DNA from: Marispirochaeta sp.
Lineage (GTDB): Bacteria > Spirochaetota > Spirochaetia > JC444 > Marispirochaetaceae
Length of the DNA stretch: 64,000 nt
Assembly: GCA_963676835.2 (NCBI GenBank)
Contig: CAXXFF010000003.1
Coordinates: forward strand, 512,001-576,000
Direction: 5' to 3'
Part shown: positions 18,478 to 34,106 of the stretch, piece after piece
Layout: each line of letters opens with the position of its first letter
Position numbering within the stretch: the first letter of the stretch is position 1
The notes under the pieces: model-generated
Seen by the model: the letters and a program-made list of their open reading frames with translations, nothing else
Told to the model about the DNA's origin: nothing
Database searches by the model: none
Translations under genes and position numbers: made by a program

Positions 18478-19323
18478 CTACCCCTCAACCATAACCTTCC
18501 TGTACTCTTTAGGATTCCGGTTACAGATCTTCTTGAAGCTTTTATAGAAATTGCTCATACAGCAGAATCCTGCTTCCATGGCAATGTCTATCACCTTCAT
18601 ATCAGTGGTTAGAAGCAGCCGCTGGGCTTCATAAACCCTCAGCATGGTAATGTAATCCACAATGTTTATACCGCATTTCTGGCGGAACAGTTTAATGGCA
18701 TAATTGGGATGAATATCTGCCGCTGCGGCGATCTCCTCTATATATATCTTCCGGCGGAAGTTCAGGGTAATAAAATCATACATTGGTTTAAATGTGTTTT
18801 TATCCCGTGGAATTATAAAGGGAGAATCCTGTCCCCGTGATTTCTGCCCGGGCGACTGGGAGTCCATAAAACGCCGCAGCCTTGCCTCCACAGACAAAGC
18901 CATGGTTTTAATTTGATGCTCTTCTGTAGAGAGAGACTCTTTTTTCCATAGAGGAAAATGATGCAGATCGAGGGTTCGCAATTCCGGATTCCGCTCTATA
19001 AGCACCTGCCCATCCATTACCCGGCGTACAATTTCCGGGGGCAGATCCCAACGGAGAAAAAGTTTGGGTGGAATGGTCAGCCAGTACAGCAGGTTATCGG
19101 AAGATATATCAACCAGCTGATGGGGAACGGCTCCCCAGAAAAGTAAGGTATCTTCGGAGTGTACCTCAAACTGGTGTCCCCCTACCCGGTACTGGATCGG
19201 CTCTCCCCGATGAAAGAAGGCGAGCTCCACCTCGTCATGGCTGTGAAAGACATCCCAGGACCGTGCTTTTCCGATATCACAGCCAAATCCGAAACTTAAA
19301 TCCAATACACTATTTTGTACCAT
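18478..19323 (-). CDS. AraC family transcriptional regulator (MelR-like)
   Basis: Cupin 'HSHDEVEL...FWGAVPHQL'; HTH 'IAAAADIHPNYA...IAMEAGF...FYKSFKK'. Confidence 0.92.
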   Translation of the reverse strand: MVQNSVLDLSFGFGCDIGKARSWDVFHSHDEVELAFFHRGEPIQYRVGGHQFEVHSEDTLLFWGAVPHQLVDISSDNLLYWLTIPPKLFLRWDLPPEIVRRVMDGQVLIERNPELRTLDLHHFPLWKKESLSTEEHQIKTMALSVEARLRRFMDSQSPGQKSRGQDSPFIIPRDKNTFKPMYDFITLNFRRKIYIEEIAAAADIHPNYAIKLFRQKCGINIVDYITMLRVYEAQRLLLTTDMKVIDIAMEAGFCCMSNFYKSFKKICNRNPKEYRKVMVEG

Positions 19324-19418
19324 AAATATTAGAATAGTGCACAAATTCACCGTTGCCAAGGAGGTTTTTTTGTAATTATCCGCTTACCCTTGAATTATTC
19401 CAAAACGAAGGATCTGTA

Positions 19419-20612
19419 ATGACACATCGGGAAAGGATGACAGCAGCTGTAAACAAACAACCGGTAGACGAAATTCCCTGGGCACCGCGGATGGATCTGT
19501 GGTATATCGCAAACCGTGCATCGGGAACACTGGAAAAGCGTTTTGAAAACAAAAATACAGTGGAAATAGCCCGGGAAATGGGGATAGGTTGCCATGCGGT
19601 AAGGGCAGATTATACCCTTAAGCGGCCTAAAGAAGATTTAATACTGAGGGGATTCGGTCTGGACAATCACCCGGACTATCCCTTTCGCATAGAACTGAAA
19701 AAGTTTCCCGTGGAATTTGAGGCTGACGCGGAAAATCTGAAAACAACCATTAAAACACCCGCCGGGGAACTTCATACTCATATCTGGACATCTCTGGATA
19801 TGCTGAAAGACGGGATTTCCCTTCCCTTTGTAAAATCATACCCAATAGAAAGCAAGGATGACTTTGAAGCTGTCGCCCAGGTTTTTGAAAACCTCGAAAT
19901 AATACCCACTCCGGAGAACTATAAAGCCTTTCAGGACCGTACAGGAGATCAGGGCCTTACCATGGCCCATGTTCTCTCTGCGGCATCACCAATTCATCTT
20001 ATGCTCCACGATATGATTAACATGGAGCAGTTCTATTACATGTATATGGATCACCGGGATGAGATGCATGCTCTGGCAAAACGGATGGATGTGTTTTTTG
20101 AAAAAGCTCTCGATGCCGCTCTTGCCTGTGATTCAGAGGTTTTCCAGTGGGGAGCCAATTATGATCAGAATACTACCTACCCCGGGTTCTTTGAAGAAGA
20201 AATTCTTCCCTGGCTGAACAGGGCCGGCGGAAAGGCCGAGAAAGCCGGCAAAAAACTGCTTTCCCATACGGACGGAGAAAACAAGGATCTCTTTGCTCTC
20301 TACAGGGGCAGTGGAATCCATGTAGCAGAATCCGTTTGCCCGGCACCAATGACAAAATCATCCTTGAAAGAGATACGGGAAGAAATGGGAGAGGATATAA
20401 CCGTATTCGGTGGAATTCCTGCGGTAGCCCTGATGGAAGAATCCATGGATGACAAAGAGTTTAACCGTTATATGGATACCCTTTTTGAGGAGCTAGGCTC
20501 AGGCAGAGGACTCATTCTCGGAGTCTCAGACAATGTTCCTCCCAGGGCAAGTATGCAGAGAATGGAAAATGTTAAAGAACGTATCAAACAGTTTGGTCCG
20601 GTAAGTTTCTGA
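19419..20612 (+). CDS. uroporphyrinogen decarboxylase / MtaA-CmuA methyltransferase family protein
   Basis: 'MTHRERM...PVDEIP', 'FFEEEILPW', 'SHTDG', 'VFGGIP', 'LILGVSDNVP'. Confidence 0.85.
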   Translation: MTHRERMTAAVNKQPVDEIPWAPRMDLWYIANRASGTLEKRFENKNTVEIAREMGIGCHAVRADYTLKRPKEDLILRGFGLDNHPDYPFRIELKKFPVEFEADAENLKTTIKTPAGELHTHIWTSLDMLKDGISLPFVKSYPIESKDDFEAVAQVFENLEIIPTPENYKAFQDRTGDQGLTMAHVLSAASPIHLMLHDMINMEQFYYMYMDHRDEMHALAKRMDVFFEKALDAALACDSEVFQWGANYDQNTTYPGFFEEEILPWLNRAGGKAEKAGKKLLSHTDGENKDLFALYRGSGIHVAESVCPAPMTKSSLKEIREEMGEDITVFGGIPAVALMEESMDDKEFNRYMDTLFEELGSGRGLILGVSDNVPPRASMQRMENVKERIKQFGPVSF

Positions 20613-20665
20613 ATAAGGTCTATGTCATCAATTTCGGTTGATGAAAAAATATTTGGAGGTAATTT

Positions 20666-21670
20666 ATGAAACGACTTATCATTGCAGCAGTGGTATTGAT
20701 GGTTATTCTGCCCTGTCTTTTTGCAGGCGGAAGCCAGGATGGCGGAGAAGAGACAAAAACCTATAAATTCATTTATGGGTGCGGCGACGCTGTCGGTTCT
20801 TTGAATGAAAAGACCAATGCAAAAATGGTGGAACTTCTGCGGGAGAAGAGCAACGGTCAGATAGAAATCGACTGGTATCCCGGAGGACAGCTGGGCAGTC
20901 ACATGGAGCAGATCCAGAGCACTATGGGAGGCACACAGGCTCTATTCGGAGCGGTGGGCGACTGGCTTTCAAACTGGGACAAGGATTTTAATCTACTTTC
21001 CTGGGGATTTACATTCCGTGACCGTGATCATGCCCAGAAATTCCTTCAGTCAGACCTGTATAAAAAAATGACCACAAAACTTGAGGAAGAGCAGAATGTT
21101 AAGATTCTCGGTACAGTGGCGACAGACCCCAGAATTCTCTTCAGCAAAACCCCGGTAAAGACCCTTGGCGATATTGAAAACAAAAAGATGCGGGTTCCCG
21201 AAATTGAAGCCTATCTCAGACTCTGGGAAGCCCTGGGAACACGCCCCACCCGGGTCGCATGGGCAGAAGTCTATATGGGACTGAAACAGGGAGTTGTAGA
21301 TGCCTGTGAAGGACCTGTAGTAGCAGCCTATTCCAATAAGTTCCATGAAGCCGCCCCCTACGTAACCCTCACCCGCCACATAAACTCTACATTCTTCATT
21401 ATGATGAACGGTGATGCATGGAAAAGTCTTACACCGGAACTGCAGGCAGTTGTACAGGAATGTGCAGATGAAGCCCTTGAGTACTGCGGCAGTGAGTCAC
21501 AGAAATGGGTTAATGAAGCTCTGGACAAAATGAAAGCGGAAGGGGCAACACTGATCGAAGTTGACAACATAGCGGAATGGCAGAACAAGGTTCAAGGCGC
21601 CACAGCAGCTATGGAAGAAAAGGGTATGTTTTCTGCAGGACTGGTTGAACAAATCCAGGCAATAAAATAA
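20666..21670 (+). CDS. dctP: TRAP transporter substrate-binding protein
   Basis: 'YPGGQLG', 'KMRVPE', 'EVYMGLKQGVVD'; signal peptide. Confidence 0.93.
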   Translation: MKRLIIAAVVLMVILPCLFAGGSQDGGEETKTYKFIYGCGDAVGSLNEKTNAKMVELLREKSNGQIEIDWYPGGQLGSHMEQIQSTMGGTQALFGAVGDWLSNWDKDFNLLSWGFTFRDRDHAQKFLQSDLYKKMTTKLEEEQNVKILGTVATDPRILFSKTPVKTLGDIENKKMRVPEIEAYLRLWEALGTRPTRVAWAEVYMGLKQGVVDACEGPVVAAYSNKFHEAAPYVTLTRHINSTFFIMMNGDAWKSLTPELQAVVQECADEALEYCGSESQKWVNEALDKMKAEGATLIEVDNIAEWQNKVQGATAAMEEKGMFSAGLVEQIQAIK

Positions 21671-21699
21671 AGCGCCTGTCGGGATAATTTACCATGGAT

Positions 21700-21727
21700 A
21701 ACAGGGGCCTTGATAAAGGTCCCTGTT
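21700..21727 (+). terminator. intergenic stem-loop between dctP and dctQ
   Basis: AACAGGGGCCTT...AAGGTCCCTGTT. Confidence 0.55.
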
Positions 21728-21772
21728 TAATAACTACACAATTTTGCTGGTACATAATTAAAAGGAGGAAGC

Positions 21773-22309
21773 ATGAATAAAGCGCTTCGGATCTATGGAC
21801 GATGTATCGAAGGGCTTGGCATGGTTCTCAAATCCATCGGAATTCTACTTATATTTTTTATTGTTCTTTCCATATTCGTGCAGGTTGTTTCCCGGTATCT
21901 GTTCAACCGCCCCCATGTCTGGGTGGAGGAATTTGCTACCTACTGTTTTATCTGGCTTGTTTTTATCGGTGCGGCTTTTGCCCATGTTAAAGGCCGTCAC
22001 ATAATAGTAACAACTTTGATAGACAGTCTCAGCAGACGGGTTCAACTTGTTCTTTCCATATGTGCCAATATCGCTATTCTCACTTTTCTGTTTTCACTGA
22101 TACGCTTCGGCTTCAAACAGTTTGCAACAGAAATGCCGCTGCACTCAATTGCACTGCCCGTCCGTCTGCCCCGGCCTCTGTTTTATTCCTTACCGTTTTT
22201 AATAGGCACAATCTCGATGTTCATTATGACTGGGTACAACCTCCTGCTGAATCTTCAAGAGATCTTTTCTTTAAAAAACCATACCGAGTTAGAGGAGGTT
22301 GAAAAATGA
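21773..22309 (+). CDS. dctQ: TRAP transporter small permease
   Basis: 'QVVSRYLFN...WVEE...FIWLVFIGA...HI'. Confidence 0.92.
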   Translation: MNKALRIYGRCIEGLGMVLKSIGILLIFFIVLSIFVQVVSRYLFNRPHVWVEEFATYCFIWLVFIGAAFAHVKGRHIIVTTLIDSLSRRVQLVLSICANIAILTFLFSLIRFGFKQFATEMPLHSIALPVRLPRPLFYSLPFLIGTISMFIMTGYNLLLNLQEIFSLKNHTELEEVEK

Positions 22310-23586
22310 TTGTAGCACTGCTTTTCGGCGGTTTGTTTGTTCTGGTTTTTCTCGGCCTGCCTGTCGCATTTTCCATCGGCATTATTACCTTTGGAAACCT
22401 TCTGATAAAAGGTGTTCCTCTGACCATTATGGTCCAGCGGATGACCAACGGACTGGATTCCTTCCCGTTTCTGGCAATTCCCCTCTTTATCCTGGCGGGT
22501 AACCTGATGAATCAGGCCGGAATTACGGACAAGATATTCTCCTTCGCTCTCAGCCTTGTGGGACATATCAGAGGAAGTCTTGCCCACGTTAATGTTGTGA
22601 CCAGTATTATTTTTGCCGGTGTATCCGGTGTGGCACAGGCAGACACAGCCGGTCTCGGTGTAATAGAAATGAAGGCAATGGAAAAAGCCGGCTACGACAA
22701 GGCTTTTTCTGCTGCGGTTACAGCAACATCATCTATCATCGGGCCGATAATTCCACCTTCTGTTATTATGGCTGTATTTTCCGTGGTTGCAGGAATTTCC
22801 CTGGGCAAGCTTTTTGTTGCAGGTTTTATTCCCGGATTGATAATGGGCGGAAGCATGATGGTGCTCATTTATATTTATGCCATCACCGGGAGAATTAAGG
22901 GCGAAGTGTATCCCCGGCCTCCGTTTAAAACAATAGTGAAGAATTTTATCGGAGCCCTGCCGGCCCTGGTTACTCCCGTAATTCTTGTTGTCGGTATGAT
23001 CGCAGGTGCTGCTACCCCTACCGAACTTGGTGCAATCTGCGTGGTCTACGGCATCCTATTGGCAGTGTATTACAGAACATTCTCCATAAAGATGATTATG
23101 GATGTTTTCTCGGAAACCCTGCAGATGGTAGGAATACTGGTTCTGGTTATTGCCGTTGCCTTTCCTTTTTCCTGGCTGGTGGCAACCTATAACATTCCTA
23201 TTCTGCTGGTGAATATACTTGAACCATTTAAACACAATGTCTGGCTTATTCTGTTAATTCTGAACATTGTTCTTTTGTTTCTGGGAATGTTCATGGAGAC
23301 TACAGCGATACTGCTCATTATGGTTCCCCTGCTCTTTCCCCTGGCAACAAGCATTGGAATAAATGAAGTTCATTTTGGAATGATAGTAATCATCAACCTG
23401 TTGATTGGTGCGGTAACCCCGCCTTTCGGTATGTGTCTGTATATTGTAACGGATATTGCCAAGGTGCCTTTTGTGCAGGTGGTAAAGGCCTCTCTGCCTT
23501 TTCTGATTCCCCTGATGTTTACCCTTTTTCTGGTAACCTACTGGCCGGATATGGTGGTATTTCTACCGAATCTTTTATTTAAATAA
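22306..23586 (+). CDS. dctM: TRAP transporter large permease
   Basis: 'LAIPLFILAG', 'GPIIPPS', 'ATPTE', 'TPPFG'. Confidence 0.95.
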   Translation: MIVALLFGGLFVLVFLGLPVAFSIGIITFGNLLIKGVPLTIMVQRMTNGLDSFPFLAIPLFILAGNLMNQAGITDKIFSFALSLVGHIRGSLAHVNVVTSIIFAGVSGVAQADTAGLGVIEMKAMEKAGYDKAFSAAVTATSSIIGPIIPPSVIMAVFSVVAGISLGKLFVAGFIPGLIMGGSMMVLIYIYAITGRIKGEVYPRPPFKTIVKNFIGALPALVTPVILVVGMIAGAATPTELGAICVVYGILLAVYYRTFSIKMIMDVFSETLQMVGILVLVIAVAFPFSWLVATYNIPILLVNILEPFKHNVWLILLILNIVLLFLGMFMETTAILLIMVPLLFPLATSIGINEVHFGMIVIINLLIGAVTPPFGMCLYIVTDIAKVPFVQVVKASLPFLIPLMFTLFLVTYWPDMVVFLPNLLFK

Positions 23587-23592
23587 ACAATT

Positions 23593-23628
23593 AAAAAGGC
23601 GGACTTAAAGAGTCCGCCTTGTATTTTT
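23593..23628. terminator. bidirectional terminator between convergent dctM and ulaG
   Basis: AAAAAGGCGGACT-TAAAG-AGTCCGCCTT then gtattttt. Confidence 0.75.
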
Positions 23629-23718
23629 CTGTTCACCTTTTTTTACACCTTTTTACCTTTTTAACTTTTAAAAACTTTCCATCAATTTTTTCCATTTTTT
23701 AATTTTCAGCACAACTAT

Positions 23719-24792
23719 CTAAAGAAATGATTTAAACGGAATATTGGGTTCCTGCTCCATAGCATCGGTAAATCCTCTGGGGTATTTATACCGGTTTTTA
23801 TCCAGATCTGTGGGGTAAACATATTTTCCCCCCGGTGCCCATATATACAGTTTGAACTTATAATCCAGCAGATCTTTCTTGTAATCGTACAGAACTTTAA
23901 TTTCGTTGGGGTCGGCATAATAGGCAGGCCAGATGAGATAGTGGATGGGAATTATTACCTTGCAGTCAAGGTTTTCTCCCAGCCTTAAAATATCCGAGGC
24001 ACTGACTTTGTCGGAGATACCCCTGGGGTTTTCTCCGTAAGGTGCTACAGCCACATCTATATCAAAATGCTTACCGTGCCTGAGGGTGTAGTTGGAAAAA
24101 TGTGAGTCACCGCTATGATAAAAAGTACCACCTGGAGTTTTAATCAGATAATTTACGGAACGCTCATCCATATCATCCGGCAGACGGCCCACAATGCTGC
24201 CCATGGGAGGGGCTGTCACCAGGCAGGTCTTATCGAAAGACTCAAGCACGTGTATTTCCGTATCCTTGAACTTTAGAACATCCCCGGGCTTTACCATTAT
24301 AATCCTGTCTTCAGGAACACCCCATTCAAGCCATTTATCCCGGCAGAATGCAGGGCCTACAAAAGGGACATCCGGCAGCTTTAAAATAGCTCCGGAGCTG
24401 TAAATATCCATGTGGTCCATATGACTGTGAGTCGCCAGAAAAGCATCTATTTTTTTAATTTCAAAGGGATCGATATAATGGGGAATATTTCTTGGATTGA
24501 GATGAAACTGGTTACTGCCGGCTATCCGTGCAAGTGCATAATTTGAGCCTCTCGAACTTTCCGGTACATTATAATGTGATGTTTTTGCATTGCCGGAATA
24601 TAGATCGACACAGATATTGCAGTCCCCTTCCGACTTTATCCAGATACCTGTGCAGCCAAGCCACCATGATGCAAAGGTTCCTTTATCGACAACTGTCTCT
24701 TCGATGTCTTCAATAAGCCATCGTCCCCATTCGGGAAAACAGTCCATCAACCACTTCTCTTTCGTAATATTGCGTACATTATTTGTGTTCAT
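23719..24792 (-). CDS. ulaG: L-ascorbate-6-phosphate lactonase-like metallo-beta-lactamase
   Basis: 'FPEWG.WL.E.IE', 'WWLGCTGIW', 'THSHMDH', 'YHSGDSH', 'YGENPRG', C-terminal 'NIPFKSFL'. Confidence 0.9.
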   Translation of the reverse strand: MNTNNVRNITKEKWLMDCFPEWGRWLIEDIEETVVDKGTFASWWLGCTGIWIKSEGDCNICVDLYSGNAKTSHYNVPESSRGSNYALARIAGSNQFHLNPRNIPHYIDPFEIKKIDAFLATHSHMDHMDIYSSGAILKLPDVPFVGPAFCRDKWLEWGVPEDRIIMVKPGDVLKFKDTEIHVLESFDKTCLVTAPPMGSIVGRLPDDMDERSVNYLIKTPGGTFYHSGDSHFSNYTLRHGKHFDIDVAVAPYGENPRGISDKVSASDILRLGENLDCKVIIPIHYLIWPAYYADPNEIKVLYDYKKDLLDYKFKLYIWAPGGKYVYPTDLDKNRYKYPRGFTDAMEQEPNIPFKSFL

Positions 24793-26177: not shown

Positions 26178-26256
26178 CACCTTTTAGCACAGCTCCTGTA
26201 TAAGGTAAATAATGTACTCCTCTGGTACCTTTTGTCGGTAAGATTGCTACCTTTTG
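26178..26256 (+). promoter_or_regulatory. putative response-regulator binding boxes
   Basis: TACCTTTTG at 26226 and 26248 (22-bp spacing); CACCTTTTAG at 26178. Confidence 0.4.
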
Positions 26257-26326
26257 CCAATATCACCAGTTCCTCCATATTAATACACTTTCACTGTATG
26301 GATTATTTCATATGGTGAGGTGAGCA

Positions 26327-29314
26327 ATGATACAACACCACAGGTTAGCAGTGGTAATTCTTTTAATTCTGCCCTTTCAGTTTCTTTCAGCCCAGAATTT
26401 TAATACTGATATCAGAAAAGCAGCTGAAAATGATCTATTCAGGGGAGACCTTCTTGCTGAAGATCTTAAGACTGTGAGGAATCAAACCTGGGAGGAGGTA
26501 TCATTATCTCTTCTGGTTCAGGATGTGGAAGCGGAAGCAAAGGCAGCCGGACTGGAATCGTTCAGTCTGAATATTTCAAATAATTCAATTAATATTATAT
26601 ACCGGGATATTCGATTCCTGCCGAACTCCGCGGAACTTACGCCGGAGACGAGAGAAAAGATAAGCAGTCTAACCCGTATTTTGAATCGTTTTTCCCGGAT
26701 GAGCCTTCTGGTTAAAGGACATACAGCAAAGCTGTCGCCGGAAGATACCGATGACGGACTGCTGCTCTCCGAACAGAGGGCGCAGTCGGTTGCAGGTTCG
26801 ATTGCAGCTTCAGGATTTTTCAGTGCCGAACAGATAGAATCAGTCGGCAAGGGGTTCTATGAACCGGTAGCGGACAACTCAACTTCTGAGGGCAGAGCTC
26901 TTAACCGCCGTGTAGAGATATCCATTGTGGGCTCCATGAATCAGAATGCCGATGAGAGTATGGTCTGGTGGAATTTCCTGAGCGAATCAATGCACCCCGG
27001 TTATACGGCATATCTCGTACACCATAACAAGCTTGAAGAAGTAAAAACAGCGGCAGATTCATCGGGAATAGCCGGTCTTACTTTCGCAGAAACTCCTGCC
27101 GGTATAGGTATTCTGGATGATTCAATCTCATTTCAGGGGGATGGAGCACCCGACTCAGCAAGCCTTGAGCGGATGCAGAACCTCGCAAAGGTTCTGTCTC
27201 TGGTTGATTCCGAAGCAGAGGCCAGAATAGGCGGATACGGATCGGAACTGCCTGCAGAAAAGATAGAAGAACAGCTCTTTCTTACGGCTTATACACTTGG
27301 TGTAATCGCCGGATTAAAGAGTGATAATATTATCTACGGTTCCGCTCCGTATACGCTTCACAAAGCGACAGCCGAGCTCGCATCCTGCAGTATCTCAACA
27401 CCGGACGGAACCCCTGTTGTAATAAATAGTACAGGAGAGTCCTACTTCGCCGTTGTTCCCTTTTCTGTGAATTCAATAGCAATCGATTTCACCCCGGCCG
27501 ACACGGCGGCGCTTATTTCAGGCCTCCCGGAAGGCTATTTTGAGCTTGTTCCGGGGATTAATGAAATATCGGTAAAGGCAGAATCTTCCGCCGGGTCCCG
27601 AAAAATCTCAAAGAAATACAGCCTGTCGGTGCAGAGACAGAAGGCTGAGCCGCTGGCCTTATCCCTGGCAGCAAACGATATGCCCCTGTCAATCAGTCCG
27701 GATTTTTCTGCGGATATTAAACTTTACTCCGCACATATTCCCGTAGAAACTGCCAATGTCGAAGTTTCGCTTTCATTATTACCCGAGGATCGTGCTGCCG
27801 GTGCGGTGACAGATATTGTGAAGGAATATGAGGAAGAGCTTGCATTCGGAAAAAATACCATTATGCTTGTTCTTTCTGACGGTTATTCTGAAGATGATAT
27901 CTACACCATTGAGGTATACCGGCAGGCACCGGCTGCAACAAGCCTTGCACAGGTTTCGGCAGTATCTGACCAGGGCGGTTCTATCGAACTTATACCGGAG
28001 TTCAGCCCGGATATTTTTTCCTACCGCGCCTTTGTTCCCTATCTGGTAGAGTCTGTTTCGATAGATCTTGTTCCTGCGGATACATATACTGTACTGGAGG
28101 CTGATCATGCGGAATATCAGTTGTCCGTGGGAAAAAATGAACTGGCAACAATTGTTACCGACCAGCTCGGCAGCTCATTCACTGAATATAAATTGCTAAT
28201 CGAACGTGCTGCACCTGCGGTAACAACACTTGATAATGTGTCAGTTCTATCCTCCGACGGCAGTAATATTGAGCTAATCCCCGCGTTCAGCCCCAATGTA
28301 ACATCATACCGCGCTGTGGTTCCCTATTCGGCAGAATCCGTTACCATAGATCTTGTTCCGACCGATAATGACGCCCTGTTACAAACCGATCATGCCGAGG
28401 TTCCGATATCGGTGGGAGATAATGAGTTTGCAACCCTTATTACAGACCAGTCGGGCAATTCCGCAGCAGAATATAAGTTAGTAATTGAGCGTTCGGCACC
28501 GGCTCTTTCCAGACTGGAAATTACGGGGAAAGGTCAGGAAGGAAAAATCTTCATGGTTCCGGATTTCAATCCTGAAGTTACCAGGTACAACGTGTTGGTA
28601 CCATACTCCGTAAACAGTGTCGAACTTGCCGCAGCCCTTGGTGAAAACGACCGTAAAGCCGGTGCTTCAATGGAAGTACTGCCTGACAACGGTAAAGAGC
28701 TGCCTGTCGGAACATGCGAAAAAATTGTACGTATACAATACGCCGACGGAAAATCTCTTGACTATCTGGTTGAGGTTACCCGCGAAGAAAAACAGGAGAT
28801 CACATTTGATATTTTCGGAATAAGTCTGCTGCCTGAATGGTATGTGACTCCGTCGCTTTCATTCTATACAGGCGGCGCGGGTTTCAAGCTTAACGGGGGC
28901 ATGACTGTAAGAGTTTCAGAAGAATCCGATGTTGATGACCGTTTACTGCCCTTACGGGTTGGACTTGGCGCCCATGTTCATACCGGAGCCGGAAATTATC
29001 TGACCATTCTTTCCGGCGGTCTCTATCTTAGCGGAGAATACATCTTCAGTACCGAAAGCTTTCTTCCGTCTGACTGGTATTTCCCCAGAAGCATAATTCC
29101 AAGAGTGGAGACGGGGTTTGCGTATTATGGAATAGATTATACCGAGGGCATTTATCACGAAGGTCCGGCATTCTATCTTTCTCCCGCGGTGAGAACTGAT
29201 TTTGTTCTTCCCCTACTGAAAGAGATGACATTCGGCCTGGATATTTCCTACACGGCCTATATCAGTTCACTGCCAATAACCTACCTCAGCCTCGGCGTTA
29301 ATGTCGGCAGGTAA
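26327..29314 (+). CDS. OmpA-family peptidoglycan-binding domain + about 5 cadherin-like beta-sandwich repeats + putative C-terminal beta-barrel
   Basis: Signal peptide; 'IRFLPNSAEL...KGHTA...LSEQRAQSV...GRALNRRVEI'; repeats 'L.PxFSPxxxSYxAxVP...Y.L.I.R'; C-terminal alternating aromatic/hydrophobic strands. Confidence 0.85.
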   Translation: MIQHHRLAVVILLILPFQFLSAQNFNTDIRKAAENDLFRGDLLAEDLKTVRNQTWEEVSLSLLVQDVEAEAKAAGLESFSLNISNNSINIIYRDIRFLPNSAELTPETREKISSLTRILNRFSRMSLLVKGHTAKLSPEDTDDGLLLSEQRAQSVAGSIAASGFFSAEQIESVGKGFYEPVADNSTSEGRALNRRVEISIVGSMNQNADESMVWWNFLSESMHPGYTAYLVHHNKLEEVKTAADSSGIAGLTFAETPAGIGILDDSISFQGDGAPDSASLERMQNLAKVLSLVDSEAEARIGGYGSELPAEKIEEQLFLTAYTLGVIAGLKSDNIIYGSAPYTLHKATAELASCSISTPDGTPVVINSTGESYFAVVPFSVNSIAIDFTPADTAALISGLPEGYFELVPGINEISVKAESSAGSRKISKKYSLSVQRQKAEPLALSLAANDMPLSISPDFSADIKLYSAHIPVETANVEVSLSLLPEDRAAGAVTDIVKEYEEELAFGKNTIMLVLSDGYSEDDIYTIEVYRQAPAATSLAQVSAVSDQGGSIELIPEFSPDIFSYRAFVPYLVESVSIDLVPADTYTVLEADHAEYQLSVGKNELATIVTDQLGSSFTEYKLLIERAAPAVTTLDNVSVLSSDGSNIELIPAFSPNVTSYRAVVPYSAESVTIDLVPTDNDALLQTDHAEVPISVGDNEFATLITDQSGNSAAEYKLVIERSAPALSRLEITGKGQEGKIFMVPDFNPEVTRYNVLVPYSVNSVELAAALGENDRKAGASMEVLPDNGKELPVGTCEKIVRIQYADGKSLDYLVEVTREEKQEITFDIFGISLLPEWYVTPSLSFYTGGAGFKLNGGMTVRVSEESDVDDRLLPLRVGLGAHVHTGAGNYLTILSGGLYLSGEYIFSTESFLPSDWYFPRSIIPRVETGFAYYGIDYTEGIYHEGPAFYLSPAVRTDFVLPLLKEMTFGLDISYTAYISSLPITYLSLGVNVGR

Positions 29315-29323
29315 GGAGTAAAA

Positions 29324-31393
29324 ATGATGAATAAGAGATTTCTACAATCTGCAATTGCAGTGGCAATTATAATAATTCTTGCTGTTTCAGGATGTTCTGA
29401 TCTCAGCAGTCTTGCCACAGATGCTGAGAATGCCTTTAACGATGATGCTGTAAGCAGCGATGCCGAAAATCTTACGGTCTCAAGCATTACCTATGCCCCC
29501 GGCGATTCAGCAGCTTCCGTTACCGCTGATTTTCAGGTACCTGTAAGCGGCGACAGCGGCACGACTATTACATGGACTTCTTCGGATCCTGCAGTGGTTG
29601 CCATAGCAGCTGACGGAAGTACTACGGTTTCCCGGCCTTCGGGTTCAAACGCTACTGTCACACTGACGGCCACAATAACAAAAGGTGATTCAACATATAC
29701 CAAAACAATTACTGTCATTGTTCTGGCAGCCGATGTTGTAAATCATGCCATAACCTTTAATGCCAATGGAGGCAGCGGCAGCATGAGTAACCAGACTGTT
29801 GCAGAAGGTGCAACTGCCAATCTCAATGCCAATACCTTCACATATTCCGGCCATACCTTCAGCGGTTGGGCAACCTCATCGGGAGGAAGCGTGGTGTATG
29901 CCGACGGCGCAAGCTTTACAATGGGCGGCTCCGATGTAACACTGTATGCAGTCTGGTCAGCAATCACCCACACCATAACCTTTAATGCCAACGGCGGAAG
30001 CGGCAGCATGAGTAATCAGACAATCGAAGAAGGTGCAACTGCCAGCCTCAATGCCAATACCTACACATATTCCGGCCATACCTTCAGCGGCTGGGCAACC
30101 TCATCGGGAGGAAGCGTGGTGTATGCAGACGGCGCAAGCTTTACCATGGGCGGCTCCGATGTAACGCTGTATGCTGTCTGGGCAGCAATTACCCACACCA
30201 TAACCTTTAATGCCAACGGCGGAAGCGGCAGCATGAGTAATCAGACAATCGAAGAAGGTGCAACTGCCAGCCTCACCACCAACGCCTTTACCTATGCTGA
30301 TCATACCTTCAGCGGATGGGCAACCTCATCGGGAGGAAATGTGGTATATGCCGACGGAGCTGACTATACAATGGGAACTGCAGATGCTGTTCTTTATGCC
30401 GTGTGGCGCGCTGATGTTACAATCAGTTCTATTACTCCTGACGGAGAATCATCTGCATCATCGGATTCCGACATCGTAATAGTATTTACGGGAAGTCTTG
30501 ATGGAACCACAATAGGAACAGTGAGTTTTGCATCACCGGCTGTCACTTATACAGACGGGGACAATGCCTCAATAACATTCGGCACCACAAACACAGTAAA
30601 TGATACGGTTACAGTTAACCCGACAGAGAATCTTCAGCAGACAAACTACACGTCCATAACTGTTTCCGGGTTCAAGGACAGCTACTCAGAAGATGTTACC
30701 TGCACTGAATCTGCTTTTTACTTCCCCGTTAGAGGTGCCATGGATCTGTACTTTCCCTTTACTAACGGTTCACTGACAGATGCAAGCGGAAGGGGTGTTT
30801 TATTAGTACCAACCGGAGGTCCGACATTAACTACAGGACATGACGGAAGCGCCGATGGCGCCTACAGCTTCGACGGTACAAACGACTACATGCAGGTTAA
30901 TGGAGATTTAGGCATAGACTGTGATGCCGATTTTACCATCAGCGCATGGATTTATCTTACCGCCATCGCGAACTACAGAGCCATCGTTTCAAATTACCAC
31001 ACCACGGGAGCAAACGGCTTAATGTTCAGGGTCAACTCCAATTGGGCCGGCCACACGAATGCTTTGGACTTGTCGGAAGGTTATTCGAATAATGGAGCAT
31101 TGAGTACAGGAACCTGGCTCCATGTGGTTGGCGTATATACTGAAACAACCCGAACAGTACAATTTTATGTGAACGGGGTTGATAGTGGTTCTGATTCGAC
31201 TGGCTACAATATTGTAGATCCGTTGCTGTCTGATTCAAGAAATAAATTCGCCATTGGTGCTGATTACCTTATCGGCGGCGCAAGATATTTTCCCGGAACA
31301 ATCGATGAAGTCAGGTTTTACAAATACGCCTTGACATCAACCGAAGTAGGCAATCTATACCGCAACGAAGATATCAATGACAATACTCCATAA
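29324..31393 (+). CDS. surface lipoprotein: Ig-like domain, 3 InlB B-repeats, Ig-like domain, LamG/ConA-like domain
   Basis: Lipobox 'VSGC'; 'ITFNANGGSG...GHTFSGWAT...TLYAVW' x3; LamG 'FDGTNDY...FTISAWI...WLHVVGVY...FPGTIDEVRFY'. Confidence 0.88.
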   Translation: MMNKRFLQSAIAVAIIIILAVSGCSDLSSLATDAENAFNDDAVSSDAENLTVSSITYAPGDSAASVTADFQVPVSGDSGTTITWTSSDPAVVAIAADGSTTVSRPSGSNATVTLTATITKGDSTYTKTITVIVLAADVVNHAITFNANGGSGSMSNQTVAEGATANLNANTFTYSGHTFSGWATSSGGSVVYADGASFTMGGSDVTLYAVWSAITHTITFNANGGSGSMSNQTIEEGATASLNANTYTYSGHTFSGWATSSGGSVVYADGASFTMGGSDVTLYAVWAAITHTITFNANGGSGSMSNQTIEEGATASLTTNAFTYADHTFSGWATSSGGNVVYADGADYTMGTADAVLYAVWRADVTISSITPDGESSASSDSDIVIVFTGSLDGTTIGTVSFASPAVTYTDGDNASITFGTTNTVNDTVTVNPTENLQQTNYTSITVSGFKDSYSEDVTCTESAFYFPVRGAMDLYFPFTNGSLTDASGRGVLLVPTGGPTLTTGHDGSADGAYSFDGTNDYMQVNGDLGIDCDADFTISAWIYLTAIANYRAIVSNYHTTGANGLMFRVNSNWAGHTNALDLSEGYSNNGALSTGTWLHVVGVYTETTRTVQFYVNGVDSGSDSTGYNIVDPLLSDSRNKFAIGADYLIGGARYFPGTIDEVRFYKYALTSTEVGNLYRNEDINDNTP
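29744..30406 (+). repeat. three tandem 225-bp (75-aa) InlB B-repeats
   Basis: CCATAACCTTTAATGCCAA at 29748, 29973, 30198. Confidence 0.92.
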
Positions 31394-31406: not shown

Positions 31407-31438
31407 GGAAGGGGCAGCAGCCCCTTCCCTCATTTTTT
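31407..31438 (+). terminator. Rho-independent terminator
   Basis: GGAAGGGGC-AGCA-GCCCCTTCC followed by ctcatttttt. Confidence 0.7.
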
Positions 31439-31489: not shown

Positions 31490-32161
31490 GTGAAAATGAC
31501 CAAGGTTTTTCTTGTTGACGATCATAAAATACTGCTCTCGGGGATTAAAATAATTATAGAGTCTCTGCCGGATTTTTCAGTTATGGGTGAGGCTTATGAC
31601 GGACTGACCGCCGTAAAAGAGATTACACGCCTGGAACCGGATATCTGCGTTGTAGATCTGTCCATTCCCAGGCTGAACGGTTTCGGCGTAGCTCAGAAGC
31701 TGCAGGAGAGCCGTATTGATTCAAAGATAATCCTCTTAACCTCTTTTGTAGACGACTCCCTGGTATCCCGTGCGCTGCAGTACAGAATTGCAGGATATAT
31801 CCTTAAAGAAGACAACACGGACGAGCTGAAGCGGGCTCTTATTGAGGTCCGCGACGGCAACCGGTATTTCTGCCCGAGCGTTATGACAAAAATGATAAAT
31901 AAAATTGAGAAGCTTGAAGGAAGCTCTGAAGTAATACCTCAGACAGCAATGGTGAACTCACTCTCTCCAAGAGAAACTGATGTCCTTATGCTGGTTGCAA
32001 ATGGACTGACCGGTAAAGAGATCTGCGGAGAGCTCCATATTTCGGAATCAACTCTAAAAAAACACAAGACAAACCTGCTTAAAAAAATGGATGTTAAAAC
32101 AACCAATGAACTTATTGCCCTTGTAAATAAGGATGAACGGTTTGCCAGGCTTTTTACCTGA
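31490..32161 (+). CDS. NarL/LuxR family response regulator
   Basis: 'VFLVDDH', 'VVDLSIP', 'LSPRETDVL...HISESTLKKH'. Confidence 0.93.
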   Translation: MKMTKVFLVDDHKILLSGIKIIIESLPDFSVMGEAYDGLTAVKEITRLEPDICVVDLSIPRLNGFGVAQKLQESRIDSKIILLTSFVDDSLVSRALQYRIAGYILKEDNTDELKRALIEVRDGNRYFCPSVMTKMINKIEKLEGSSEVIPQTAMVNSLSPRETDVLMLVANGLTGKEICGELHISESTLKKHKTNLLKKMDVKTTNELIALVNKDERFARLFT

Positions 32162-34106
32162 GGTTTTAAACAAACCCTTCATTGTCTTATCATTCCTGTT
32201 ATTGCTGACAACCGGCAGCGGTTGGGCAGACACTATTGTACAGAACGAGCTTGACTGGGACGGTAAAAGCATAGTCGAAATATCCGATGAATGGGAGTTC
32301 TGCTGGCATGCAATGCTCACATCGGCCGAAGAACGTCCTCGGGATGCAGAAATTTATACAATACCGTTTCTCGGTTCATGGCAGTCAAACACTGAGGGCG
32401 ATAACAGGCTTCCGTCATATGGATACGGAACCTACCAGAAGATTATCATACTGCCGCCGGATAGGGGAAAGCACATAATATTAAGGATACCCCAGGTAGA
32501 TCCGGCAATAGCGGTTTACTGCAACGGAGAACTGATTTACTCAAACGGAACAGTGGGCGGTACTGCAGAAACATCTGTTCCGGAAGAATACAGACCGGTT
32601 CTCAGAGAGATCTCTTCAGAAACCGGCATCTTTGACATATCCATACAGATGTCCAATTTTGATCTCGACTCATATGGGAACTATCTAATGCCGGTCATGT
32701 CTTCTGTTGATACCGCGTTCGGAATACAGGCTGCAGCCTTTATGGCCAATGCACTATTAATAACAGCACTTCTTATTCTTGCCATCTACCTTCTTGCCAG
32801 CGGCATCAAACTGAATAACAGGTGGAGTATCTACCTTGGTCTTTCATATATTACAAATGTACTTTTTTTACTGGTTAACGGAGAAGTTTTTCTTGGCCAG
32901 CTGGGCCTGTCAAGGTTGATAATCTGGAAGATCCATTATCTTTCACGGTTTCTGACGTTTTTTTTCTTTTTCTGTTTTACCATGGAGTTCTTTTCCGTCC
33001 GCCTTCCACGGCTATTGAATCTTTCAGTACGGGTTTTCACTGTTTTGCTTTCATCTGTCTTTTTACTGACAAAACCGCCGCTGCTGCCCCATTTTTTAAT
33101 TCCTTCGGCACTTATCGGCTACGGTATAATTGTATTCGGTATTGTCCTTTCTATAAAAGGAGTTTTAAAGGATTATCCCCGTTCCCGGGTTTATCTTACA
33201 GCAATACTGATTCTTGCTGTCTTTATGAGTTTTGATATATTAAACAATCCTCCATCTTGGCCTATTCTTTTTAACTGCAAGAGTTCAATAGGACTGCTTC
33301 TGTTCGGAATAATACATACCCTGATGCTTATAGATATACTGAGTACCCATGTAAGCACTATTGAAAAGCTTGTTGATAAACGAACCAGAGAACTTGAAGC
33401 TGCAGTATGGGCACAGGCCAGGTATGCACGGGTAGGCGAAATGCTAAATTTCATAGCACACCAATGGCAGCAATACCTCTATGCTGTTTCAGCCAATGTT
33501 GAAGGTTTAAATCAGGAGGAAGAAAAAAGTATTTCGGGAAAAAAGAGGCTGGAAATTTATGGCACTATCTCCGAGGCTGTACGAAGTATGTTTTCTACCC
33601 TGAAAGATTTTCGTAATTTCCTGAGTCCCGTACGGAATAGAGAACGCTTTAATGTTCATGATGAAGGCCGAAAGGTATTTTCTCTGCTTGAGGACCTTTT
33701 TCTGACAAAAGGAATTGAGATTAATATCGAAACAAGCGGAGACACAAGAATCTGGGGGGTAAAAAATGAATTGCAGCAGGTTATTCTTAACCTGCTTACA
33801 AACGCGGTTAACATAATCGAAAAACGTAGTATAGATTCCCCATACATTCACTTTATATCTAGCGGAAGTTCTGATTCCGTTTCGTTGGTAATAGAAGATA
33901 ACGCAGGCGGTATCAGCAGCAGGCTCCGCGAAGAGTTGTTTAAACAGGAAAAAAACAGAGAAACTATCGGTAGTGGTATGGGACTTTACATGTCGAGAAG
34001 AATAATCCGTGAGAGGTTCGATGGAGATATGATATATGAGGACGGCCTTTCCGGCGCTCGTTTTGTAATTATCCTTCCAAAGGATTATAGAAAATCTGTC
34101 CGGTAA
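32133..34106 (+). CDS. sensor histidine kinase with periplasmic jelly-roll domain and 7TM region (7TM-DISM-like)
   Basis: 'WEFCW', 'YGYGTY'; about 7 TM helices; H-box 'FIAHQWQQ'; 'NLLTNA', 'DNAGG', 'GSGMGL'. Confidence 0.9.
   Translation: MNGLPGFLPEVLNKPFIVLSFLLLLTTGSGWADTIVQNELDWDGKSIVEISDEWEFCWHAMLTSAEERPRDAEIYTIPFLGSWQSNTEGDNRLPSYGYGTYQKIIILPPDRGKHIILRIPQVDPAIAVYCNGELIYSNGTVGGTAETSVPEEYRPVLREISSETGIFDISIQMSNFDLDSYGNYLMPVMSSVDTAFGIQAAAFMANALLITALLILAIYLLASGIKLNNRWSIYLGLSYITNVLFLLVNGEVFLGQLGLSRLIIWKIHYLSRFLTFFFFFCFTMEFFSVRLPRLLNLSVRVFTVLLSSVFLLTKPPLLPHFLIPSALIGYGIIVFGIVLSIKGVLKDYPRSRVYLTAILILAVFMSFDILNNPPSWPILFNCKSSIGLLLFGIIHTLMLIDILSTHVSTIEKLVDKRTRELEAAVWAQARYARVGEMLNFIAHQWQQYLYAVSANVEGLNQEEEKSISGKKRLEIYGTISEAVRSMFSTLKDFRNFLSPVRNRERFNVHDEGRKVFSLLEDLFLTKGIEINIETSGDTRIWGVKNELQQVILNLLTNAVNIIEKRSIDSPYIHFISSGSSDSVSLVIEDNAGGISSRLREELFKQEKNRETIGSGMGLYMSRRIIRERFDGDMIYEDGLSGARFVIILPKDYRKSVR

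Follow-up and report, generated by a model that had tools for sequence, protein, structure and literature searches.

In classical OmpA and OprF proteins, the beta-barrel is N-terminal and the wall-binding domain C-terminal. The opposite layout, an N-terminal wall-binding domain followed by a stalk and a C-terminal barrel, is represented by OmpM of Veillonella and by related tethers in Terrabacteria, and OmpM is reported as absent from Gracilicutes (PMC10628300). Other described systems resemble parts of such a design: in Bt1926-Bt1927 of Bacteroides thetaiotaomicron, a barrel predicted to have 8 strands is encoded next to a surface lipoprotein whose N-terminus is extended and conserved (PMC12578637, PMC4611039), TpgA/AtaA joins an adhesin mount to the wall via an OmpA-type domain, with proposed shear resistance (10.64898/2026.01.22.700529), and the Tpr proteins of Treponema combine a periplasmic N-terminal part with a C-terminal barrel as a proposed sacculus tether (PMC8407342). 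Here, we describe P0001, a reversed-order OmpA-type protein encoded at 26327..29314 (+ strand) of a 64,000-nucleotide stretch of Marispirochaeta sp. (contig CAXXFF010000003.1, positions 512,001 to 576,000; we will refer to the whole stretch as the window), together with the lipoprotein whose gene follows it. The family is a conserved, apparently undescribed arrangement of known parts; literature searches gave no description of the reversed-order architecture, most subscription journals lying outside the search.

We propose that P0001 docks a surface lipoprotein through its barrel while a slack periplasmic spacer lashes it to the peptidoglycan, a reading whose chances we put at about even. It would work like OmpM in its layout and like Bt1926/Bt1927 in its pairing, but is a member of neither. 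The family fails defining features of classical OmpA, of OmpM and of autotransporters. It shares with OmpA/OprF the same two kinds of part, its predicted barrel superposes on that of Escherichia coli OmpA, and other spirochaetes have homologous barrels in proteins of classical order; on the other hand, its order is reversed, it has two OmpA-like domains and, across the family, 3 to 8 or more beta-sandwich spacers, its motif reads TA..G for TD..N, and its gene is paired with that of a lipoprotein. With OmpM it shares the sequence of wall-binding domain, stalk and barrel, but the first is OmpA-like and not an SLH domain, the second consists of beta-sandwich repeats instead of coiled coil, the third has 8 rather than 16 strands, and the family is patchy, not core. 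For Bt1926, likened here by description, no wall-binding arm is mentioned in the accessible text, and Bt1927 forms an S-layer (PMC12578637, PMC4611039). In TpgA/AtaA and in the OmpA/SLH/LysM autotransporters the adhesin is the barrel's own passenger, as their report describes, whereas here it would be a separate lipoprotein (10.64898/2026.01.22.700529); the Tpr barrel is described as trimeric and porin-like, without OmpA-like domain or cadherin-like repeats (PMC8407342).

The gene is a single, stop-free open reading frame (ORF) of 995 codons, and a contig of sequencing run X1, probably the source sample, is identical to the window over 26200-29896. In P0001, Pfam matched only OmpA and Cadherin-like at E up to 0.1, with no SLH domain. 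Together with the AlphaFold2 model from a 41-row alignment (mean predicted local distance difference test, pLDDT, of 81), this bears out the order, reversed relative to OmpA, that the sequence-only reading had proposed; a single-sequence model was discarded (pLDDT 33.5). The signal peptide claimed earlier was also recognized by eye at residues 1-22 (26327..26392), with a basic n-region, a hydrophobic core and likely cleavage after A22, which is invariant in 11 homologues, Q23 being nearly so. Since this peptide looks cleavable, the link would join outer membrane and wall only, and the earlier term "trans-envelope" was too strong.

The predicted 8-stranded outer-membrane barrel occupies residues 832-995 (28820..29311). 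In the model, eight long strands run over 832-994 (pLDDT 79-95), about 165 residues in all, and hydrophobic residues alternate along them (35 distinct rows). Among 48,161 chains compared with VIA-align, the best match was the E. coli OmpA barrel (Z 17.4, root-mean-square deviation (rmsd) 1.6, 126 of 137 aligned), followed by a Legionella porin III chain, OprF (Z 16.1), NspA (Z 15.8), PagL and OmpW; no row covered domain 2 or the repeats, and the comparison says nothing on their folds. The Atlas gave 0.94 from the C-terminus to barrel clusters. Pfam and PDB sequence searches assigned no barrel family to this domain (best OmpT, E 0.43; Opa, E 0.048), and among the matches listed by Foldseek for the whole model there were Ig tandems and OmpA domains but no barrel. 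The alternating strands and the OmpA-barrel match thus uphold the idea that the amphipathic C-terminal strands form a barrel.

At the other end, N-terminal helices (residues 27-73, 26405..26545), including a long predicted helix at 45-73 that enters the OmpA-like fold, align in structure comparison with a MotB/Tp0624-type extension. Domain 1 (residues 74-203, 26546..26935) is an OmpA-like domain of spirochaete type, matched by Pfam OmpA (PF00691) at 97-194 (E 1.9e-12; 47.8 bits against a cut-off of 27.2). The peptidoglycan-binding motif of OmpA domains is given as TD(x7)NxxLSxxRA (PMC5104382), whereas domain 1 has GHTA-K(x8)-G-xx-LS-xx-RA, that is, TA(x9)GxxLSxxRA: the position of Asp134 holds Ala and that of Asn144 Gly, with Arg151 retained, and the domain is not the "canonical" one it had been called. 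GHTA is found in 12 of the 13 full-length family members (GHTT in one), and all 13 have Gly and a longer spacer at the Asn position, not Glu/Gln with a six-residue spacer. The best structural matches were Tp0624 (Z 15.4, rmsd 2.7, 134 aligned) and Borrelia 3oon (Z 15.0, rmsd 2.2, 113 aligned). Tp0624 and TP0292/Tpn50, the nearest in fold, likewise show the Asp-to-Ala change with Arg kept, but have Glu/Gln where P0001 has Gly, with a shorter loop; such OmpA-like proteins of Treponema pallidum are described as lacking a barrel (PMC8407342). As far as its report describes, Tp0624 does not bind diaminopimelic acid (DAP) and may suit an ornithine-type wall (PMC5104382). Wall binding by domain 1 is, on these sequence comparisons, plausible. 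The window's genome encodes ten OmpA-domain proteins, only P0001 having the domain near the N-terminus, and GHTD is clearly kept only by a MotB-like protein. Three of them (L068, L069 and L070; G000; 813-1418 residues) carry FlgD-like Ig repeats and a C-terminal OmpA domain with GHA-type motifs, one with a lipobox; as they join Ig-like repeats to an OmpA domain, long wall spacers have precedent there.

Domain 2 (residues 212-346, 26960..27364) has a conserved RIGGY and no equivalent of Arg151, the Arg of LSxxRA. When its profile was compared with that of domain 1, P was 0.04 for the initial 11 rows and, after two more distant members were added, 5e-4, with a score of 28.5 above all 60 block shuffles (maximum 24.0); the model (pLDDT about 90) shows the same order of helices and strands, and the nearest Atlas clusters were OmpA domains (0.89; a lead only). 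The second, degenerate OmpA-like domain suspected earlier is therefore, to judge from profiles and model, a decayed duplicate.

Between domain 2 and the barrel, the repeat hidden Markov model (HMM) delimits the five cadherin-like units foreseen by the sequence-only reading, at residues 349-439 (27365..27640), 443-534 (27641..27928), 538-629 (27929..28213), 633-724 (28214..28498) and 726-821 (28499..28789). Repeats 1, 2, 4 and 5 are also seen in the model, and Pfam Cadherin-like scores four stretches, supporting repeat 4 among others. Repeat 3, delimited by alignment and HMM, is an extra copy absent from the 78%-identical P0002 and the weakest part of the model, with almost no alignment cover. 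Self-BLAST as run showed no repeats, whereas alignment and HMM did. Repeats 3 and 4 are indeed close (60% amino acid and 66% DNA identity, against 22-30% for other pairs); as for repeats 2 and 5, the shared DRxAGA was confirmed at 488 and 775, but their overall identity is just 22%.

Three word-index searches and one profile search yielded 17 representative sequences carrying the repeats and this barrel, the named relatives being Spirochaetia genomes assembled from metagenomes; a metagenome scan gave one partial locus. Three repeats occur in P0011 and P0028, four in seven proteins, five in P0001 and P0010, six in P0009, seven in P0030 and at least eight in P0032 and P0048; P0027 and P0029 are fragments. 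The number shifts by gain or loss of middle units, single or paired, even between close relatives: P0002 has four against the five of P0001, and P0008 (four) and P0010 (five) are 96% identical over their first 436 residues. Since the number varies so freely, slack rather than a set distance is favoured. A beta-sandwich measures roughly 4 nm, so that spacer lengths from about 12 nm to more than 30 nm would be expected. In Leptospira, an outer-to-inner membrane distance above 25 nm is treated as out of range in one report (PMC13547282). A fixed ruler fits poorly, a slack tether fits, and the earlier proposal of a distance set by repeat number is weakened by this variation and by the patchiness of the gene. 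P0008 and P0010 are 78% identical in the barrel against 96% in the N-terminal half, as if recombined; contigs of 10,285-10,286 bases carry members of both clusters, suggesting a pair of paralogues on one contig.

The partner gene (29324..31393, +) begins 9 nt past the barrel gene's stop codon and encodes a lipoprotein of 689 residues with lipobox Cys24, aBig_2, three Flg_new repeats and a LamG tip. A terminator-like hairpin (31407..31428, +; 9 pairs, 7 G-C), from a scan whose total was not above shuffles, closes this two-gene unit, and is followed by a NarL/LuxR-type response regulator (31490..32161, +) and a 7TMR-DISM histidine kinase (32133..34106, +), the conserved third and fourth genes of a cassette. 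The order barrel protein, lipoprotein, response regulator, kinase is kept in the window and in 4/4 named Spirochaetia loci, with differing flanks; the lipoproteins of these cassettes have aBig_2, zero to five Flg_new repeats and a LamG tip. Spacer and lipoprotein repeat numbers showed no evident co-variation in five loci (5/3, 4/3, 3/0, 4/4, 4/5). Beyond the cassette, distant barrels are directly followed by a lipoprotein gene at 15 of 17 loci and at 14 of 25 fresh ones, with unrelated cargo (aBig_2, Big_7, Kelch, CHB_HEX); predicted lipoproteins make up 128 of the 3743 genes of G000 (about 3%). A short tag after the lipidated Cys (29393..29413, + in the window) is common to the partners of the nearer barrels (18/20, against 2/200 predicted lipoproteins of G000). 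The role of anchor or partner for the adjacent lipoprotein, offered earlier as one of two options, thus has the best comparative support, from gene order across loci. The Flg_new repeats at 29872-30220 are near-identical in DNA and the X1 contigs break there; their copy number may be unstable.

In the mechanism that we propose, P0001 would be exported by Sec and cleaved after A22, and its barrel, of predicted fold, would be inserted by the beta-barrel assembly machinery, a BamA-family gene being present in the window's genome. In an 8-stranded barrel, the two termini lie on the periplasmic side and the lumen leaves no room for about 800 residues to pass; the N-terminal 830 residues would therefore be kept in the periplasm, if this knowledge is applied to the model. 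Domain 1 would grip ornithine-type peptidoglycan, domain 2 may be a structural or dimerising relic, the repeats would supply reach and slack, and the barrel would hold the Ig-stalk/LamG lipoprotein at the surface, so that pull on this adhesin would pass to the wall and not to the membrane. The pairing itself is shown by gene order; from there, we infer contact between barrel and lipoprotein and surface display.

Several points weigh against this proposal. The pTM (predicted template modelling score) of 0.47 means that the model fixes neither the overall shape of P0001 nor its domain orientations, nor does it support the "rod" of the sequence-only reading. Two of three key binding residues are missing from domain 1, and Tp0624, with the same Asp-to-Ala change, is reported not to bind DAP (PMC5104382). 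As to the pairing, 11 of the 25 fresh loci have no readable direct downstream lipoprotein (two upstream only, two unreadable, seven neither), the loci are related (four represent one genus), lipoproteins were called by pattern and eye, and the 3% background is crude, coming from another genome than the loci and from a stricter pattern. The tag was defined after the near partners had been seen and recurs in 1/14 fresh distant partners (6/14 with a relaxed pattern), and a universal lipoprotein tag was rejected. Finally, the last residue of the window copy is Arg (AGG), which may impair membrane insertion.

Among the alternatives, P0001 could be a general envelope strut or ruler that ties the outer membrane to the peptidoglycan independently of the lipoprotein, the gap being set by repeat number; we consider this unlikely. 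Its domain order is as in OmpM, and barrel and OmpA-like domain are both tether parts. A tethering survey reports OmpA as the sole tether system found in Spirochaetes; it counted any OmpA-domain protein with a predicted barrel, in any order, and could include such proteins (10.1101/2021.05.31.446380). However, six other genomes of the order (four of them at least 90% complete and clean) yielded no P0001-type barrel, and profile searches in 400 genomes of the phylum no fused reversed-order form. The spread from 3 to 8 or more repeats among close relatives, the tight link to lipoprotein and two-component pair, and nine other OmpA-domain proteins in the genome also speak against a general strut.

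The barrel might instead be an export partner that moves the N-terminal tether of the lipoprotein across the outer membrane, by RcsF-like threading or a two-partner route, the periplasmic arm merely positioning it. This we find doubtful: the barrel-then-lipoprotein order and the common tag would suit it, and Bt1926 has been proposed as anchor or secretion partner (PMC12578637, PMC4611039), but the partners are multi-domain proteins of 300-830 residues, the lumen of 8 strands is narrow, and the barrel family shows free variation on its periplasmic side (nothing, an acidic linker or OmpA). More improbable is a sensor in which strain or glycan binding is signalled through barrel, lipoprotein and tether to the neighbouring kinase and regulator; the two-component pair follows in 5/5 readable loci, but the terminator-like hairpin separates it from the lipoprotein gene, the kinase has its own 7TMR-DISM sensor region, and the short flanks read around the distant barrels contain no such pair. 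It is simpler to suppose that the pair regulates the cassette.

A highly improbable explanation is an autotransporter-like adhesin with repeats and N-terminal domains displayed outside. N-terminal repeats before a C-terminal barrel make an autotransporter layout, variable repeat number is typical of adhesins, and cadherin-like repeats are common in surface proteins. A type Va/Ve autotransporter, however, has a 12-stranded barrel with a linker through the pore, whereas the modelled P0001 barrel packs 8 strands into about 165 residues and is not preceded by a pore-spanning helix, and the distal domain of P0001 is a peptidoglycan-type fold, sensible only inside. Least probable of all, the family may work as a wall-lashed lipoprotein dock with the window copy impaired by its terminal Arg, which replaces the Trp/Phe of 10/10 close homologues in a column that faces lipid and whose codon is also in the X1 contig, but the ORF and cassette are otherwise intact and another cluster member also departs there (Leu and a short extension).

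The barrel belongs to a wider family. With profile searches, related barrels were detected in 13, and later 28, of 400 other genomes of the phylum; some stand alone, some follow acidic linkers, and some precede a canonical OmpA domain in the classical order (L020, L021, L023, L025); one classical-order relative passes the PF13505 cut-off. Reversed- and classical-order barrels match with an hhalign probability of 95.4 (E 1.9e-8), the score of 55.3 exceeding all 60 block shuffles (maximum 33.5), in a comparison somewhat favoured by hits chosen with a related profile. In a 34-row tree, with near-duplicates and weak hits excluded and a midpoint root only, a well-supported branch separates the 13 reversed-order barrels from the classical ones. 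Literal inversion of one classical OmpA gene is disfavoured because the classical-order relatives keep TD..N and are distant in the tree, and because domain 1 scores no better against them (44-57 bits) than against the window genome's own OmpA-like proteins (59 and 67 bits); separate fusions appear likelier on these sequence grounds.

Other layouts were observed in this wider family. P0039, P0040 and P0050 show a second head-spacer-barrel layout, in which a small N-terminal domain is joined to the barrel by a long Pro/Glu-rich linker; their LysM-like start was not counted as support for a wall tether, as only one of the three scored, weakly (E 0.0074, 13 residues), and a PDB profile search found no LysM. 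L044, L045, L046, L050, L053 and L066, from one family of another class of the phylum, are proteins of 470-520 residues that have an N-terminal domain in common and end in a barrel that matches weakly; all directly precede a lipoprotein gene. Pairs of barrel and Ig-like lipoprotein directly follow an alpha-amylase-type gene (by eye) at L012-L014, L016, L018, L019 and L024, hinting at glycan use, and alternating or tandem barrel and lipoprotein arrays occur at L058, at L022 and L026, and at L065 and L067.

Around the cassette, a promoter scan gave 24 against 19.3 in shuffles, not above background. Just upstream of the P0001 gene, 25046-26170 (+) encodes a multi-pass membrane protein of 374 residues with no Pfam/NCBIfam match, whose gene lies outside the cassette at L001, L003 and L004. 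Further upstream (18478-24792), genes for an AraC-type regulator, a uroporphyrinogen-decarboxylase-like protein, a TRAP transporter (by eye) and a metallo-beta-lactamase-fold protein form an ordinary sugar-acid uptake cluster.

How spirochaetes tie the outer membrane to the wall and retain surface lipoproteins is poorly understood, and the N-terminal-tether design has been known as OmpM from Terrabacteria (PMC10628300). The weight of the present finding is limited by rarity (about 17 sequences, the named loci being metagenome-assembled) and by the putative nature of the wall binding. It is possible, if far from assured, that spirochaetes independently rebuilt an OmpM-style tether from OmpA parts, joining a small tag-recognising barrel to an Ig spacer of tunable length and a wall clamp adapted to ornithine; in that case, the cassette would be a portable, regulated adhesin socket, and the barrel family a general route for mounting surface lipoproteins. 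One barrel family appears to be reused with a wall-binding domain at either end, and nature offers a series of 3 to 8 or more spacers along with a defined barrel-lipoprotein pair. Thus, the binding of ornithine-type peptidoglycan by Asp-to-Ala OmpA domains, the setting of envelope spacing by spacer number, and the anchoring as against the export of lipoproteins by small barrels are all made testable.

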